The notes under the pieces: model-generated
The model's input: the letters and a program-made list of their open reading frames with translations, nothing else
Told to the model about the DNA's origin: nothing
Databases searched by the model: none
NCBI GenBank assembly: GCA_963677485.1
Contig: OY781964.1
Coordinates: 96,001-160,000 of the forward strand
DNA: 64,000 nucleotides
Direction of reading: 5' to 3'
Source: Armatimonadota bacterium
GTDB lineage: Bacteria > Armatimonadota > HRBIN16
Made by a program: the position numbers and the translations under genes
Shown: positions 38,659-46,109 of the stretch, piece by piece
Layout of the letters: each line of letters starts with the position of its first letter
Position numbering within the stretch: position 1 is the stretch's first letter

Positions 38659-41322
38659 ATGCAGAAACCGACAAAACTGTCCGAGTATCCGGTGCCGTCA
38701 AGTTTCGTACTAGGCAATGCGCCGTTCATCAATACCTGGCTCATTACCGACCCTATTAGTAACTCATCACCGGCCACGATGGACCAGCACCCGGAAGCCA
38801 TCCAAGCCTGCCAACCGGCACCCAAACGGGCATTTGGCTCCTCGAAGTGGTATGTGTTCGACGACCGTGTGTTCAGCCGCAACTACGACGACTACGTGGA
38901 TCTGTTCAGCTATTTCCGGGCGAAGCGCAACCTTCCGGTGGCGGGAGCGGCGATCTACGCGGCGGTCTGGCTATGGTCGCCGTCGGCCACAGCGGCTCAG
39001 GTGCGCATTGGTGCTGATAACATGTTCCGCGCCTGGTGGAATGGGCTGCCCATCGGCTCAGCCGACCATGCCAACACCACCGGCGATCCGAACCCACCAG
39101 CACCTGGTGGATGGCCTAACAGTTATTACTGCGTGAAGTCTGACAACGCCGGTAAGGACATGAGCCAGCTCGCTGTTCAGATGAAGCAGGGCTGGAACCT
39201 GCTGATGCTGAAAGTCGGCAACAAAGAAGAGGGCTTGTTTGGGTTCTATGCCCGTATCTGCCAACCCGACGGCAATGCGATACCGGGTCTGGTGCCCAGC
39301 CTGGCCGGCCCTGATCAGCCGCTACAGACTGCACTGGCCGACATGCCGGGTGTCGCCCCTGATTTACCTGTGGCTTTCACCGAGTGGCCATATGTTCACA
39401 CCAACCATCCACTGATAGCCGAAGCTCTGTCCATCTGGCCAGAAGGGCACCAGATGTGGGCCCACGCGGCGCAATCCAGCGAGTTCAGGCTCTCCGCGGC
39501 TGGCGGTCTGCCCCCGTATCACTGGAAGCTCACCGCGGGACGGCTGCCGAAGGGCATGAAGCTGAATGATGACGGCATCATCACTGGCCCGGTGGACATG
39601 AAGCAACCGCTGGGCACCTTCCCGCTGGCGTTCCGAGTAACCGACAGCACCGGCAAGACGGCCACCGCACGCACCATGATCACGGTGAAAGAACGCCCGA
39701 ACCGCAGGTATGAAACGGCCCGACTGAACGCACTCATCCACGCGCCGGATAAATACAACCCACCGGACTGGCCGAAACTCGCCCGGATCATGAAAGACCA
39801 GGGCTACACCTATGGGATGCCCATCGGATATGGCAACGGCGACTGGTATTTCCGATTCCGCAACCGGTTTGACCCGAATGCCCCCACCGCGGGCGCTCAT
39901 GACCTAGTCAAGAAGGCCCTTGAGGCTGAGGGGCTGAAGTATGGCATCTACCTGGGCAACATGCATGATTCGCCTCAGTTCAAATATGAGCAGGTCATTC
40001 TGATGATCGAGGATGCCTGTAAGCAGTATAAACCAGCCGCCTTCTGGCTGGACTGGCTTGCCATAGACCAGTCGTCCCTTGACGCCATCTACAGCATGGT
40101 GCGCACTATGCTGCCTGACACATTAATGATCGTCAATGGCGTGGAACGCCCTACTCATGGCGACTGGGATATCTGCTGCGTCGAAGAGTTCTCATTCGTC
40201 CCAGACCAGCGGTGGGGCCGATGGCCCAACGATGTGAAAGCCAGTGCCATGGAGATACTCAAATCCTGGCCAAAAATGCACATGATGGAGAGCTGGCGTC
40301 CGATGCTCTGGCCTTGGAAGGGTGATGTTGAGACGGTACCAGAGTGGCAGGACTACCAGCGTGTGGCTATCTCACTCATCGGCGAGGGGAATATCGCCGA
40401 TATGGACCACAGTCCCGGCACAGGTGCTTTCCCAGGCGTGACAGGCGGCGGTGGTGTCACCTTCGACAGCTCCAAACTGATGACGGCACATAACCACATG
40501 GCGGATTGGGCAAGCAAGGATCGGACCGAACCGCTCTACCACGCTTATACCAACATCGTGAACACAACCCTGCCCGACCAGCCTTGGGGATACACCACTC
40601 AGAGCCTGGATGGCCGGTATCTATACCTGCTTACACTTAAGAACCCCAGAGGTAAGACGGGCCTTCCTAAGGCTGGCTTGGAGCTCCATGGGTTGAAAAA
40701 CAAAATCCGCGCAGCCGTCTGCATGAATGATGACCAACAACTCAGTTTCAAGCAATCCAACAGCGGTCTGAAGATCGATACATCCGCGATCACAGAAGAC
40801 CCCATCTGCACCATCATCAAGTTGACCATGGTCACCTCCCTGCCCTTGCCTGAGCGCAAGATGCAAGAGCCTGTATTCCATGACCGCATACCCTCCGAAG
40901 GCAATCTAGCGAAAGCCAAACCAGCCCGATTGCTGAGTGTGGATGGAACCCGCGACCTGACCCCCAACATGGAGGTCTGCTACGCCAGCCTGGCGGTCGA
41001 TGGTCTTTCTGGCACCGCAGCGGTCGGATCCGGCGACTGGGCCTGGGCTCTGGAAGTGGACCTGTTGAAACCAGAAACGGTCGGCCATGTCAAGGTTCTG
41101 TTCGCAGCAGGATGGGCTACCAGCTACAAAATCGGCCTGAGCGAAGACCGCGTTCAGTGGAAGACTGTCGCCACGGGGGCCGGAGCCAAGAACGCCTGGC
41201 GCGAGCACCGCTTTGCCGCTATCAAGGCCAGGTACGTGCGCATCACCGCCATCAAACCCGATGGCGAGAACCAGGAAGGCACGCAGATGGGCATCGTCGA
41301 TCTGCAGGTCTATCCGAAGTAA
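38659..41322 (+). CDS. Multidomain putative glycosidase (paralog 2)
   Basis: Colinear and highly similar to 35984-38620. Confidence 0.7.
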   Translation: MQKPTKLSEYPVPSSFVLGNAPFINTWLITDPISNSSPATMDQHPEAIQACQPAPKRAFGSSKWYVFDDRVFSRNYDDYVDLFSYFRAKRNLPVAGAAIYAAVWLWSPSATAAQVRIGADNMFRAWWNGLPIGSADHANTTGDPNPPAPGGWPNSYYCVKSDNAGKDMSQLAVQMKQGWNLLMLKVGNKEEGLFGFYARICQPDGNAIPGLVPSLAGPDQPLQTALADMPGVAPDLPVAFTEWPYVHTNHPLIAEALSIWPEGHQMWAHAAQSSEFRLSAAGGLPPYHWKLTAGRLPKGMKLNDDGIITGPVDMKQPLGTFPLAFRVTDSTGKTATARTMITVKERPNRRYETARLNALIHAPDKYNPPDWPKLARIMKDQGYTYGMPIGYGNGDWYFRFRNRFDPNAPTAGAHDLVKKALEAEGLKYGIYLGNMHDSPQFKYEQVILMIEDACKQYKPAAFWLDWLAIDQSSLDAIYSMVRTMLPDTLMIVNGVERPTHGDWDICCVEEFSFVPDQRWGRWPNDVKASAMEILKSWPKMHMMESWRPMLWPWKGDVETVPEWQDYQRVAISLIGEGNIADMDHSPGTGAFPGVTGGGGVTFDSSKLMTAHNHMADWASKDRTEPLYHAYTNIVNTTLPDQPWGYTTQSLDGRYLYLLTLKNPRGKTGLPKAGLELHGLKNKIRAAVCMNDDQQLSFKQSNSGLKIDTSAITEDPICTIIKLTMVTSLPLPERKMQEPVFHDRIPSEGNLAKAKPARLLSVDGTRDLTPNMEVCYASLAVDGLSGTAAVGSGDWAWALEVDLLKPETVGHVKVLFAAGWATSYKIGLSEDRVQWKTVATGAGAKNAWREHRFAAIKARYVRITAIKPDGENQEGTQMGIVDLQVYPK

Positions 41323-41380
41323 TCGCTTGAGTGTTGGCCGTCGCGTGCGACGGCCAACACACCAGACCGCGCAGGTGATA

Positions 41381-41425
41381 GTCTGAACCACGGATTACAC
41401 GGATTGGAACAGATGGATCCGGATC
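41381..41425 (-). repeat. ATCCGTGTA-type short tandem repeat ending GGTTCAGAC
   Basis: Reverse complement reads ...atccgtgtaatccgtggttcagac, as at 7181-7224. Confidence 0.7.
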
Positions 41426-41470
41426 GGGGGGAAACCACACCGGTAAAATGAAAACATGTATGCTTCCGCT

Positions 41471-41577
41471 GCCGCGACATCATTGTCTCGGCTATTGATC
41501 ATCAAGTCCGTTGAAACGGACTGCGGCACTTCGTGCCGTTTGGGGTAAGGTGCCCCAGGCTGCTTCAGCAGTCTTGT
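41471..41577. repeat. Left part of an inverted repeat doublet interrupted by IS110
   Basis: 41471-41522 is an inverted copy of the repeat at 41-91; the right arm starts at 41557 and resumes at 43393. Confidence 0.72.
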
Positions 41578-41688
41578 AAGTAACCTTTATACGGCGATCA
41601 TACCACCTATTGGGTATAGAATGCCTGTCGGAGCTGCCTATGCACTTCTCCGATAAAATTGTGCTTGAAAGCATCGAAAATCAAATGG

Positions 41689-43128
41689 TCAGACGGCTTC
41701 GATCAGATCGAAACCTAACTTCTTGGCCCTCTTTCTCATGGCTGCAACTTGATGAGACTGATACCTCGCTTCGTAATCCTGAACCCCAAGATCAACGTAT
41801 TGCTGGCCGTCTTTTAGCAGATGGTAGTACATCCTGGCGATTTTGTATGCGGTGGCATAGAGAGCTTTAGGCTTACTGATGCGAGCCGCTAAGCGTCTTT
41901 AGAAAGCACCGTAAGCATTATCAGAACGTATAGTCGCAACGGCCGACTGCAGAAACAGAACGGCCGCAGGATGTATGCCAGGCCGGGTACGGCTCGATAG
42001 CCGTTTACCTCCGCTGATCTTCTGAACCGGCGCAAGACCAAGGTATGACCCGAAATGTCGATCCGTTTTCCACTTATCCATGTCGTAGCCTAACATAGAC
42101 AGAAGGCCCAGAGCTGTGAGACCGCCGATTCCTGGTAGCTGGGTTGGGTCTACACCCAGAAACAGTGTCACCATCGCACCAGCATTAAATGGCGGTGGAT
42201 GTTTTCCCTGGTTGACTGGGTGGGTTTCCAAGCTAACAGCTTCCGTGATCTGATCATCATTCTCAGGCATGATCGCAGTAAGATGCTGTAATATCTGAGC
42301 ATCGATCTGAGCGATTTGAGCCTGATGGAAAAGATGGTCGTTTCGGGCTATCTTGAGAGCAAACACCAGGTGGGGTTGGTAATACCCTGTCAAAGCCGCA
42401 TAAAGCTCTTCATCGGTGCAGTGACATCGATGATCGCGATATGACGCCAGTTTGACTGGATCACGCTCTCCATTCACGATCGCGTCCACGATACGCTGAC
42501 CAGTCACTCCATCCAGGTCGCTTATTACCTGGTGCGGGCGCAGATTCATCATATCCAGAGCCCTCTGCTGGCGACGGACCGCATCACCGCAGAATTCCAC
42601 TTGTTTACTTCGTTGGTGCCAGAATTCTAGCAACGGGCGAATGTCTTCGCTCGGGCGAAACGAGGCTGAAAGCAAGCCGAATTTATGCAGCTTCTGTAAC
42701 CAACGTGCGTCTAGCTTGTCATCTTTCGGGCGTCCAGGAACATTCTTAGCATGGCTTGGGTTCACCAGAAATACTTCGATGCCGGCCTTCTCCAGAGCAT
42801 CGTACACCGGAATCCAGTAGACACCGGTCGCCTCCATCGCCACCGTAGTCACGGCATGCGATTTCAGATACTCAACCCACACCGTCAGATCCGGGGTCAT
42901 TCCCCCCACCTCTATGACCTCAAGCTCTGTTTCACTGATCTCCAGAGCGATGAAGTGAGCGCCGCGCCCTGCTAGGTCAATGCCCGCTGCATTGCGGTGG
43001 ATCACCTGGAGATCCTCTTTTGGATAATGAGCTACGAACCGAGGGGCCGGTACACGGCGCGACAACAGGGAGTGGGAAGGAGGCTTGGCCTCTACAGGCG
43101 AGTTGTCTTTTCGAGAGTGCTGTGCCAT
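41689..43128 (-). pseudogene. IS110 DEDD recombinase with an in-frame TAA at 41899-41901
   Basis: AAGID, MEATGVYW, KDDKLDARW, LPGIG, ISGG; same frame continues after GAF* as RRLAARISKPKALYATAYKIARMYY...RKRAKKLGFDL to TGA at 41689. Confidence 0.88.
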
Positions 43129-43164
43129 TGTTTGATCCTCACACTTAGAAATATGAACACATCT

Positions 43165-43312
43165 CGAGCCGGAAAGGCATATGCGTGAAATCTTGTAATC
43201 GGGTTCACTCGGGTTCGCCACCGAGCACTACACCATCTGGCTGATCAGCCACCTTTCCGCCCCATGCTTGTTAACGGGCTATTATGCACCAAAGACTGTC
43301 CGGGGATGCTGT
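43165..43312 (-). ncRNA. Putative IS110 bridge RNA
   Basis: Two stem-enclosed internal loops carrying segments matching target (CAGTCT / AACAAG) and donor (CAGATGGT / TTACAAG); ends approximate. Confidence 0.75.
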
Positions 43313-43538
43313 CAAGAGATGTGTGCTATAAATGTACCTGAAACGCATCAGTTACAGTATGGGCTGCCGGGTAGGCACGGGCGGATGCTTGTTTGTCAAT
43401 AGCCGAGACATTGATGTCGCGGCGGCGAGGGCCTCTAGCTTTGATATCCACCGCACCACCCATCTCCGCCCATCGCACGTGAGCCACCATGGTAAAATAG
43501 ACAAAACATCCCAGCACTATCAGAAAGGTTTCTCTCAC

Positions 43539-46109
43539 ATGCATTTTCTGACACGCCCCAGCTTACTGCTTGCTGCGCTATTACTGACTGGCAGCACGCA
43601 GGCTCAGCCCCTGAGCATCAGCAACGACTACATCCGCATCGATGGTGCAGATGGCGTCATCAAGTCGCTGCGAGTATCATCCACACCCAAAGGCAAGCTC
43701 AGCGATAACATCATCAACGGCTTTAGCCTATTCTCGCCGGTAGCGAATAAATCGGCCAAAGTAACCATAGATAAAAAGTCCCATACCATGCGTATACAAA
43801 ACGCGGCGTATGGCTTGACACGAATCATCGAGTATCCAACCACTAACCCATCATACCCGGTGGAATTGAAACCAGGCGGAGTGTTGGCACAACAGATACA
43901 ATTCAAGTCAGGCCGTATCCGCCGCGTTGCTGCACAATGCCCCACCTGGAACAAAGGCGACTGCACCGCCACATTCAGCTTATACCGAATAGCCAATGGT
44001 AAAAGGCAGCTCGTATCACAAATGCGTCCCCAACTGGTCGGCGATGGCACTACCGTGTGGCTGGACGCAAAGAACTCCCCAGCGGGCACCTATTCATTTG
44101 AGATGTCTAGTCCCAAAGGCACCATCGGCTGGTGGCAGCCCACCAGCAACGGTCCGGTGCCCGGATCATCATTTACCAACGGACAGGAAGTCAAAGGGAA
44201 ACACTACGCCCTCAAAATTGAGGCTATTCTGACCGGCTATGCGAATGCCGTGTGTAAGTTGGATGGCCCGAAACTGACCATTAACTACCAACCCACCAGC
44301 AAGCTAGGTGACGCGAAACCCTGGATTTCCGTGAAGATGGGCTGGGTCAAGAACGGCTATGATGTCAGCAGCCCGAAGATCAAGTTCAACTATGTGTATT
44401 CCAACAACGACATCGTGGTGCCGGCATACCTATTCAAGCGGCGCACCGAATCTTACTCATGTAATTTTCAATGGTTGCGCTTCAACGGCCGGATCGGTGC
44501 AGACATCCAGATCGAACCTGCACAGATGAAGGCTGACATCAGCGACACCGAGCTGGACTGGCACATCAATGGCACCAGTCTGCGTCTGTCGGTACTCCCC
44601 CACCAGAACGGTTACCCAAAGCACCTGACCTCGTTCGACAGCAGCAATCCCAAGCTCACAAACCCCATCAACGAGTTCTTATTCACGCACAACTACAGCC
44701 ACGATATCGGGGTGAACCCAGACTGGGCTGACTGGATGAGCGCGCAGATGTGCTACACCACAAGCCGACAGGCAACCCAATATGAAGGGGTGATCAACGG
44801 CCATTACATCCAGCCGAACGGCTATGTCAACTCGTGGGGATCCATGCCCGGCTGGCCATTCCCCTTCGCCGATGCGAACGGCGACGGGTTAAATGACCTG
44901 GACACCCGCCACATGCCTACCAATCCTAACCTGATCATTGGGTCACAGAGGCTGGCCGCCTGGAATGGCGACAGCAGCTATCTAGCCACAGTGGTCAACC
45001 GCGCACGTCGCGCCATGGAGTTCATGTTGATTGACCTTGGCGGTAAGGATGGCTTGTTGGTCATCGACTACCCAGGTCTGCAGGGTCGCAACAACGAGTT
45101 TGGCTCCAACTATTGGGACATCACGCCGTTCGGTTATAAATGCGCATTCACCAACAGCATCTTCCCACGATCCCTTGAGGCCATGGCTGTGCTGGAAGAG
45201 ATGATAGCGGCCGATCCGAAGGCCCAGAAGCTTCTACCCGCCACTTCCCTACCATCACGTGATCCAGGCTACTACCGGGCTCTAGCGAAAACCGCGGTCA
45301 AGAAATACAACGAGATCTTCTGGCTTGAGGATAAGAATCGCTACGCAGGCTGCATCGACAAAGACGGCACAGTGCATGACTACGGCTTCACCTTTGTCAA
45401 CCTCCAGGCGATGGCCTTTGGCGAAGCCAGTCCAGAGCGTGCGCGACGGATATTCAACTGGATGGAGACCGGCACCAGCTACACGGGCAAGCAAGACATC
45501 ATCAGCAAACACGTCTTTGCCATGCGCGCCAGTGCAGAACTGAATCCATCAAAGACGGCTTCACAGACACCTAAGCCAAGTTGGTGGCACCGCGATTGGC
45601 CCGGCACCGACTTTGAGGAGCAATGCCAGGCAGGTGGGGCTATTCTATACACCACAGCCCATGAAATCATGGCGCGGCAGAAGCTACTGGGCACCGAAAA
45701 CGCATGGAGCCGCTTCAAGCAGGTTCTTGGCCGCTACATGCTTGGTGACCGCCTCTCCGGTGGAAGTCCACTTATCACCGGGCAGACCTCTCAGGGCGGT
45801 CCTGGGGGCACTGCAGGGGCATGTGGCATCGAGGGTGAGTTCCCCGAAAGCGGTCTGGTGCCCAGCCAGTTCCTATATGTATTCATGGGCATCGACGCCA
45901 GCAAAGACGGCCTGCGGATCGCGCCAAACCTCCCGACCGACCTAAACTGGGCGAGCGTGAAAAACATGCGCTGGGATAAGCTGGTTTGGGACGTGCGTGT
46001 CGACCGTCAGCAGATCACCATGAAATGCCTGACGAAAGGCCATCAGCAGACCATCACCCGCCCGTTGGCTTCAGACGCAGTGACCATACGCCGCGATGAG
46101 GTGAAATAG
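43539..46109 (+). CDS. Exported putative (alpha/alpha)6 glycoside hydrolase; paralog of 19816-22410
   Basis: AGAAAGG RBS before MHFLTRP signal peptide; SNYWD, DYGFTFVN, CQAGGAILY, GEFPESGLVP, GLRIAPNLP. Confidence 0.7.
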   Translation: MHFLTRPSLLLAALLLTGSTQAQPLSISNDYIRIDGADGVIKSLRVSSTPKGKLSDNIINGFSLFSPVANKSAKVTIDKKSHTMRIQNAAYGLTRIIEYPTTNPSYPVELKPGGVLAQQIQFKSGRIRRVAAQCPTWNKGDCTATFSLYRIANGKRQLVSQMRPQLVGDGTTVWLDAKNSPAGTYSFEMSSPKGTIGWWQPTSNGPVPGSSFTNGQEVKGKHYALKIEAILTGYANAVCKLDGPKLTINYQPTSKLGDAKPWISVKMGWVKNGYDVSSPKIKFNYVYSNNDIVVPAYLFKRRTESYSCNFQWLRFNGRIGADIQIEPAQMKADISDTELDWHINGTSLRLSVLPHQNGYPKHLTSFDSSNPKLTNPINEFLFTHNYSHDIGVNPDWADWMSAQMCYTTSRQATQYEGVINGHYIQPNGYVNSWGSMPGWPFPFADANGDGLNDLDTRHMPTNPNLIIGSQRLAAWNGDSSYLATVVNRARRAMEFMLIDLGGKDGLLVIDYPGLQGRNNEFGSNYWDITPFGYKCAFTNSIFPRSLEAMAVLEEMIAADPKAQKLLPATSLPSRDPGYYRALAKTAVKKYNEIFWLEDKNRYAGCIDKDGTVHDYGFTFVNLQAMAFGEASPERARRIFNWMETGTSYTGKQDIISKHVFAMRASAELNPSKTASQTPKPSWWHRDWPGTDFEEQCQAGGAILYTTAHEIMARQKLLGTENAWSRFKQVLGRYMLGDRLSGGSPLITGQTSQGGPGGTAGACGIEGEFPESGLVPSQFLYVFMGIDASKDGLRIAPNLPTDLNWASVKNMRWDKLVWDVRVDRQQITMKCLTKGHQQTITRPLASDAVTIRRDEVK

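Follow-up and report, generated by a model that had tools for sequence, protein, structure and literature searches.

The leader of an IS110-family element very probably encodes a bridge (seek) RNA of ~170 nt, in which an outer stem surrounds a target-binding and a donor-binding stem-loop. The element lies in the window, i.e., the whole stretch of 64,000 nucleotides that was analyzed. Comparison with related loci predicts the RNA layout of IS621, with the recombination site turned round relative to the genes. Three of the four loop strands covary with target and donor, and the fourth covaries with a subterminal site. The coordinates of all features are collected in Table 1.

Table 1. Features of the element, its host repeat and its predicted RNA (window positions; sequences in transposase sense unless stated otherwise)
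Feature	Position	Strand	Description
IS110-family element	41573..43387	-	1,815 bp with one core copy counted; ends shared by three copies; empty sites
Transposase gene	41689..43128	-	479 codons; in-frame TAA at 41899-41901 (codon 410)
Host repeat, left arm	41473..41498	.	~135-bp repeat with palindromic arms that holds the target; from arm-match counts
Host repeat, right arm	43396..43421	.	From arm-match counts
Right subterminal inverted repeat	41579..41585	-	GGTTACT; 6 nt from element end
Left subterminal inverted repeat	43349..43356	-	UGUAACUG; 31 nt inside element; kept in MITE derivative
Subterminal site GGCAGCCC	43361..43368	-	Adjoins left inverted repeat; CAGCC at 43364-43368
Predicted bridge RNA core	about 43157..43324	-	Outer stem 43316-43324 with 43157-43165; two stem-loops inside, each with an internal loop
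Predicted target-binding loop and closing stem	43260..43305	-	Stem 43301-43305 with 43260-43264; compensatory changes
Target-loop inner stem-loop (UGGUG...CCCG)	43275..43291	-	Pairs invariant or compensated in 39 sequences
Putative 5' target guide CAGUCUU	43292..43298	-	Complementary to transposase-sense strand of core and downstream flank
Putative 3' target guide AACAAG, then CAU	43264..43272	-	Upstream flank and core, 3 nt into element
Predicted donor-binding loop and closing stem	43170..43259	-	Stem 43252-43259 with 43170-43177
Donor-loop 5' strand	43236..43251	-	CAGCC (43239-43243) repeats site 43361-43368 in the same sense
Putative 3' donor guide AUUACAAGA	43191..43199	-	UUACAAG equals transposase-distal end and core

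The element, its copies and its passenger

The genome carries three copies of the element: the one in the window, an identical one and copy C, which is 97% identical. When the copies are aligned with their flanks, the boundaries are the same in all three, and the + strand junctions read ...CAGCAGT-CTTGT-AAGTAAC... and ...GGCGGATG-CTTG(T/C)-T.... In empty copies of the host repeat, position 41577 is joined straight to 43388 via one CTTGT (e.g., C1:2725646-2725782), and one contig of run X16 joins 41572 to 43388, which amounts to 1,815 bases skipped. These three same-ended copies and the empty sites bear out the junctions that an earlier note on this DNA had read from the letters, together with the target and donor reconstructed there. 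The crossover could fall at any position within the shared CTTGT (41573-41577 and 43388-43392). Insertion is site-specific and without inverted terminal repeats, and a short core is the same at both junctions. The non-coding stretches of the element measure 257 nt upstream of the transposase gene versus 111 nt downstream.

The host repeat of ~135 bp has 26-bp inverted arms, with 144 arm matches genome-wide and 32 left-right pairs spaced 78-84 nt apart. In each of the 32 full copies (in the window, 41473-41577 and 43388-43421), either end is a possible insertion site beside a small hairpin. The exact 10-nt target of the window's element is present in three unoccupied copies of the repeat. Two long ORFs flank the element in the window, at 38659-41322 (887 residues) and at about 43540-46109 (about 855-925 residues).

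Inside the element ends lie subterminal inverted repeats of 7 bp, set back by 6 nt at one end and by 30-37 nt at the opposite one (30 loci). In 19 of these 30 loci, positions +30 to +37 of the opposite end hold the perfect reverse complement of the right-end 7-mer, and in 25 of them they hold a match with at most one mismatch. Only 5 of 7 positions pair in the window's element.

As the earlier note had proposed, the gene encodes a long-C-terminus transposase of the IS110 family. Its 479 codons hold PF01548 (E = 2.2e-17) followed by PF02371 (E = 2.3e-12), the RuvC-like DEDD and Tnp domains of Pfam, and the NCBIfam model NF033542 "IS110 family RNA-guided transposase" is matched with 198 bits against a cut-off of 140. 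The best match among solved structures is the IS621 transposase (E = 2.7e-11), in a partial alignment that covers residues 330-443 and 85-147. The catalytic E, D, and D and the serine of the SG motif align with IS621 (MEATG, KDDKLDA, ISGG); the first catalytic Asp lies outside the IS621 alignment and inside the Pfam match. With its in-frame stop, the window copy is unable to make full-length protein. Codon 410 encodes Tyr and the frame is open in copy C and in two of three 94% identical copies from a sister genome, and variant contigs carry A for T at 41899. Hence, repair of the stop codon, which the earlier note had suggested together with reprogramming of the guides, is unneeded.

A scan with one genome per species returned 80 loci from many phyla with proteins 33-44% identical. 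Outside this clade, the nearest full-length plasmid matches are 30% identical genes of Burkholderia, Streptomyces, and Rhodococcus. Since the plasmid matches are named either generically or after ISShdy1, ISEc66, and ISKpn2, which are distant C-terminal matches, no ISfinder name was assigned to the clade. A 338-residue IS110-family gene on a Klebsiella plasmid was considered as an IS1111-type comparator and dropped because its RNA and ends were not definable.

A passenger of ~150 bp, which lies inside six ~280-bp repeats, is a MITE derivative of the element. It is built around a long palindrome, with 44 nt of the RNA-proximal end on one side and about 13 nt of the opposite end on the other, and its ends are exactly the inverted-repeat-bounded ends of the element. 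The MITE core motif occurs 49 times in the genome; passenger loci are L006, L014, L018, L027, L028, and others of G000 (e.g., C1:2749794-2750074). Most of the six repeats, when read individually, have the passenger between ...GCGGG-CT and TGTTGATCAA.... This site fits the guides of the sister genome better than those of the three copies in this genome, and the element that mobilized the passenger now seems to be absent from this genome.

A predicted two-loop RNA and its guides

The leaders of related elements share a common plan, in which an outer stem surrounds two stem-loops and each loop runs in the order 5' strand, TGGTG, hairpin, CCCG, and 3' strand. The corresponding two-loop pattern, which was devised in this analysis and applied blind to the flanks, fits 44 of 87 related loci (copies of this genus counted) and does not fit the other 43. 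The two-loop bridge RNA that the earlier note had placed on the same strand upstream of the gene is thus a recurrent arrangement. A consensus fold of 39 leaders (RNAalifold, alignment A1) has 18 pairs, 11 of them with compensatory changes, and the compensated pairs include the closing stem of the target loop and both TGGTG/CCCG inner stems. The first pair of the target-loop closing stem, for example, is GC in 16, GU in 11, CG in 7, and AU in 4 sequences of the 39-leader alignment, and the donor-loop closing stem has a compensated pair in a copy that is 71% identical. Among the minimum-energy folds of the 39 relatives, all 39 contain the outer stem, 32 that of the donor loop, and 25 that of the target loop.

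The closing stems CCCC/GGGG and GGAAAGG/CCTTTCC described in the earlier note are present in the window. Taken by itself, however, the window leader (260 nt) folds no better than shuffled sequences (z = 0.05), and the structural support for the predicted RNA derives from comparison with relatives.

A search of 41300-43700 against Rfam with E up to 1 gave no match in the leader and one chance match outside it (BTnc005, E = 0.9). No sigma-70 consensus promoter was found in the element, with 2.0 expected. A TAnnnT box precedes the 5' guide block by 28-33 nt in many loci; 32 of 40 have such a box within the stretch searched versus 17.8 expected. In the window, this box is TACATT on the minus strand (43331-43336), and in many loci it stands at a fixed distance before the outer stem; as a lead only, it is a candidate for an internal -10 element. 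Contigs from the RNA libraries X15-X17 cover parts of the element, and one X15 contig spans the leader (43067-43375), but assembled contigs are silent on transcription and RNA ends. The X15 contig bears the guide letters of the sister genome, which shows that this guide variant exists elsewhere.

The strings that the earlier note had assigned to guides are all found where it placed them, with AGACTGTCC at 43293-43301, CTTGTT at 43267-43272, ACCATCTG at 43232-43239, and CTTGTAA at 43192-43198. Across the clade, the two 3' strands carry the strongest signal. The 3' target guide (8 nt) matches a site 40-150 nt upstream with at most one mismatch in 32 of 39 loci, compared to 37 of 1,266 cross-locus pairs. 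The 3' donor guide (7 nt) matches the element end, 1.3-1.75 kb downstream, exactly in 39 of 42 loci, compared to 29 of 1,206 cross pairs. Both matches run in the sense of the transposase strand, with AG as their last two bases. The RTG and RDG of the earlier note, which match exactly over 6 nt and 7 nt, are thus far beyond chance.

For the 5' target guide, the junction was placed by the donor guide only. In 35 loci, 2.69 of the first 4 nt of the downstream flank are complementary to the guide versus 1.55 of 4 in the comparison, a value that is reached in 0 of 5,000 permutations, although this count and those given below overstate independence because the loci are related. The guide is short and imperfect in relatives, with a match of only 1 of 4 in five of the 35 loci. 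The LTG of the earlier note is real in this sense, but is better described as the seven contiguous nucleotides CAGTCTT (43292-43298), with a signal that extends only ~4 nt past the core.

Natural variants follow the same pairing. Copy C has the guide AGCAAG for AACAAG and the flank CTTGCT for CTTGTT. The three 94% copies of the sister genome carry the guides UCGGUCUU and UCAACAAGC, the latter being the 3' guide that goes with the flank ATCAACAAG. Two of these copies sit between ...ATCAACAAG and ACCG... or CCCG..., and the third follows the end of another element. The 5' guide of the sister copies, CGGUCUU, faces ACCG in one copy and, with one mismatch, CCCG in two copies, compared to ACTG in the window. 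Likewise, guides and flanks are distinct in the 71% copy and obey the same rule.

Two further observations concern the choice of target. The sister copy L112 (G003:C1:5162043-5163857) lies directly after ...GTTACTTACAAG, the end sequence of another element or passenger, and may have arisen by tandem insertion or by use of a donor-like site as target. In L040 and L044, both from one acidobacterial MAG, the upstream flank resembles by eye the 3' part of a tRNA gene (GGTGGGAATCGAACCCACGACC, opposite strand).

By analogy with IS621, ISEc11, and ISPpu9, the element would excise as a circle in which ...TTACAAG is joined to CATCC.... The complex of RNA and transposase would then pair this circle junction with ...AACAAG-ACTG... 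in the host repeat, and strands would be exchanged at the core. In such a complex, the 3' strand of the target loop, which equals the upstream flank and the AG core in transposase sense, would pair with the opposite DNA strand. The 5' strand of the target loop would pair with the core and about 4 nt of the downstream flank, to which it is complementary. In the donor loop, the 3' strand has the sequence of the final 5 nt of the transposase-distal end together with the core. Copy C, the RNA guide of which differs by one letter, could act in trans on the window copy.

The fourth strand and competing readings

The 5' strand of the donor loop behaves differently from the other three. The 7 nt of this strand that precede TGGTG recur, in the same sense, at a site with its end 2-4 nt ahead of the left subterminal inverted repeat. 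Clade-wide, strand and site agree in 5.07 of 7 positions versus 2.98, and in 3.85 versus 2.15 when only the five variable positions are counted (0 of 5,000 permutations in each case). The site is conserved in the 71% copy even though the 20 nt between site and element end differ. No signal was obtained for this strand against the first bases of the element in the register of the target loop (1.52 versus 1.38, 27 loci). The search of 40 nt of either flank in both senses was also without signal, apart from a weak reverse complement downstream (82 of 3,000). Donor recognition is thus only half explained.

Possibly, though we consider this less likely than not, the donor loop does not cover the core from both sides. 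The 3' strand would read the short end plus the core, and the 5' strand would read, in the same sense, a site in the long end that adjoins the left inverted repeat, at 20-30 nt from the terminus and mostly past an extension that forms a hairpin. This would be a geometry of donor synapsis that is undescribed for IS621, here combined with an upstream RNA gene and an IS1111-type guide order. Retention of the subterminal site in the MITE suggests a role in end recognition. The hairpin in the left extension has z below -1.5 in 16 of 27 loci; a universal hairpin was rejected, as the window's element has no predicted structure there. In L048 and L052 (Verrucomicrobiae), the first 24 nt of the element form a stem followed by a T run, similar to an intrinsic terminator, which could block read-through into the element.

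The earlier note had instead read the window as a four-guide RNA of the IS621 type, in which CAGAUGGU (43232-43239) is a left donor guide that pairs with CGGATGCT at the bRNA-proximal end. In the window copy, six of eight letters agree and GAUG would form pairs with bases 1-4 of the element. However, four of the eight letters of this LDG, CAGATGGT, are borrowed from UGGUG, a motif that pairs with CCCG and does not vary in either loop across 39 sequences. Moreover, the sister copies have CACCC for CATCC with an unchanged RNA, which reduces the match to 5 of 8; MITE copies vary at this third base of the element, and the element starts with CA in only 5 of 27 loci. In the register of the earlier note, 0.93 of 4 positions agree versus 0.87, and 1,939 of 5,000 permutations reach this value (27 loci). 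We therefore regard a left donor guide at this position as very unlikely. A regulatory role of the same strand, in which it would mark the promoter-proximal DNA of the element for autoregulation or end recognition rather than strand exchange, is compatible with a bridge RNA. Such a role would fit the recurrent TAnnnT box and the same-sense covariation at a constant 2-4 nt from the left inverted repeat. The MITE, however, keeps the site without an RNA gene or promoter to regulate, which favors end recognition, and we consider this parallel role rather unlikely.

More fundamentally, the matches might be DNA-level repeats, either protein-binding sites or remnants of past recombination, and the leader might be only a structured 5' UTR that regulates translation as in ISPpu9. 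The text on ISPpu9 describes a long 5' UTR that inhibits translation (PMC12288879), the leader RNA of the window is a prediction from sequence, and the 5' strand of the donor loop does repeat a DNA site in the same sense. Yet the matching segments lie in the unpaired strands of two conserved internal loops with compensated stems. In addition, of the two guides, one has the sequence of a given DNA strand and the other its complement, and they overlap at the core, which is also the case in proven bridge and seek RNAs. Moreover, the flanks are host DNA that varies by locus and is nevertheless tracked by the RNA. This makes an explanation by DNA repeats most improbable, and the bridge RNA with three covarying guides remains the preferred reading.

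Relation to known bridge and seek RNAs

IS621 (Durrant et al., 2024; Hiraizumi et al., 2024) and the window's element both have a recombinase with DEDD and Tnp domains and an upstream RNA on the same strand. In both RNAs, two internal loops are present, and a UGG...CC.G inner hairpin separates the 5' from the 3' strand of each. The two strands of a loop are directed against opposite DNA strands, with an overlap at the 2-nt core. According to the text of Durrant et al. (PMC11208160), the IS621 RNA is located in the left end and the core is CT; the bottom strand is recognized by the 5' loop strand (8-9 nt paired) and the top strand by the 3' loop strand (4-7 nt paired). The text on handshake guides describes a 3' strand that runs 1-3 nt further and matches the recombination product (PMC11208158). 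The 3' target guide of the window, AACAAG-CAU, likewise reaches 3 nt into the element and thus resembles a handshake guide in position and behavior.

Unlike IS621, the window's element has the long guide (7-9 nt) as the 3' and the short one as the 5' strand, so that the order is reversed, and the core is AG rather than CT in transposase sense, with CT on the antisense strand. Furthermore, the subterminal inverted repeats have 7 bp here and 2-3 bp in IS621, an outer stem encloses both loops of the window RNA, and the transposase has 479 residues compared to 326 in IS621.

A reversed order is also known from IS1111-family seekRNAs, in which, as stated in the text of Siddiquee et al. (PMC11187229), the top-strand match precedes the bottom-strand match in the 5' to 3' direction, opposite to the order in the IS110-type ISEc21; a review table gives the same difference in guide order between IS1111 and IS110. 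Like the seekRNAs of ISEc11, ISPa11, and ISKpn4 (Siddiquee et al., 2024), the predicted RNA has the segment complementary to the top strand 5' of that complementary to the bottom strand. The subterminal inverted repeats (7 bp here; 7-17 bp in the IS1111 group) with one short and one long terminal extension are a further likeness. In contrast, the non-coding region of the IS1111 family is described as downstream of the gene and its transposases as having 330-350 residues (text of PMC11187229), while in the window the region is upstream and the transposase has 479 residues. The same text (Siddiquee et al., PMC11187229) mentions that the non-coding region is atypically placed in a few elements.

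ISPpu9, a member of the IS110 group with a REP target, recombines at AG in transposase orientation; its end boxes are conserved, its left end contains a palindrome and it is accompanied by a passenger element, as far as the text of its description goes (PMC12288879). By published description, ISPpu9 and ISPpu10 of Pseudomonas putida resemble the window's element in the AG at both ends, the palindromic-repeat target and the end boxes, and in a small non-autonomous element that has the same end boxes and uses the transposase. The palindrome in their left end is seen in most relatives here, whereas in the window's element the left extension forms no stable hairpin. L103, which has a 36% identical protein, combines the flank TGTAGGAG with a GCCC-N4-GGGC palindrome in the left end as described for ISPpu9, which is a lead only. 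In L103 and L059-L066 (relatives of the element from Gammaproteobacteria and Pseudomonas), insertion occurred after TGTAGGAG or GGCGAGGGAG, which we take to be REP sequences of Pseudomonas.

The site polarity inverted relative to IS621, as claimed in the earlier note, is therefore real, but its novelty is not upheld, since IS1111 seekRNAs and ISPpu9 precede it; the element is a modest variant of what is known. The text of a preprint from 2026 reports 86 covariance models of bridge-RNA variants, many of them unlike IS621 (10.64898/2026.10.21.760802). In the text of the literature consulted, the figures and supplements of which may contain either feature, we found neither an upstream RNA gene with top-before-bottom order nor a donor strand that reads a subterminal site.

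Bridge recombinases are under development as programmable tools for DNA insertion, and mechanistic work is nearly all on IS621 and its close kin. The locus is a clean natural example from a distant clade that spans many phyla with ~35-44% identity among members. In two sister genomes, it offers three guide/target pairs that have been reprogrammed; targets without an insertion and an intact as well as a broken copy are likewise at hand, and the MITE marks the minimal ends of the element. For the annotation of this genome, the locus accounts for a repeat-associated insertion and for a family of passengers of about 150 bp. The same RNA scaffold can serve a recombination site that is turned round relative to the genes. 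The subterminal site is a donor-recognition feature outside current models and, if it is real, reprogramming of the donor in this clade would need different rules.
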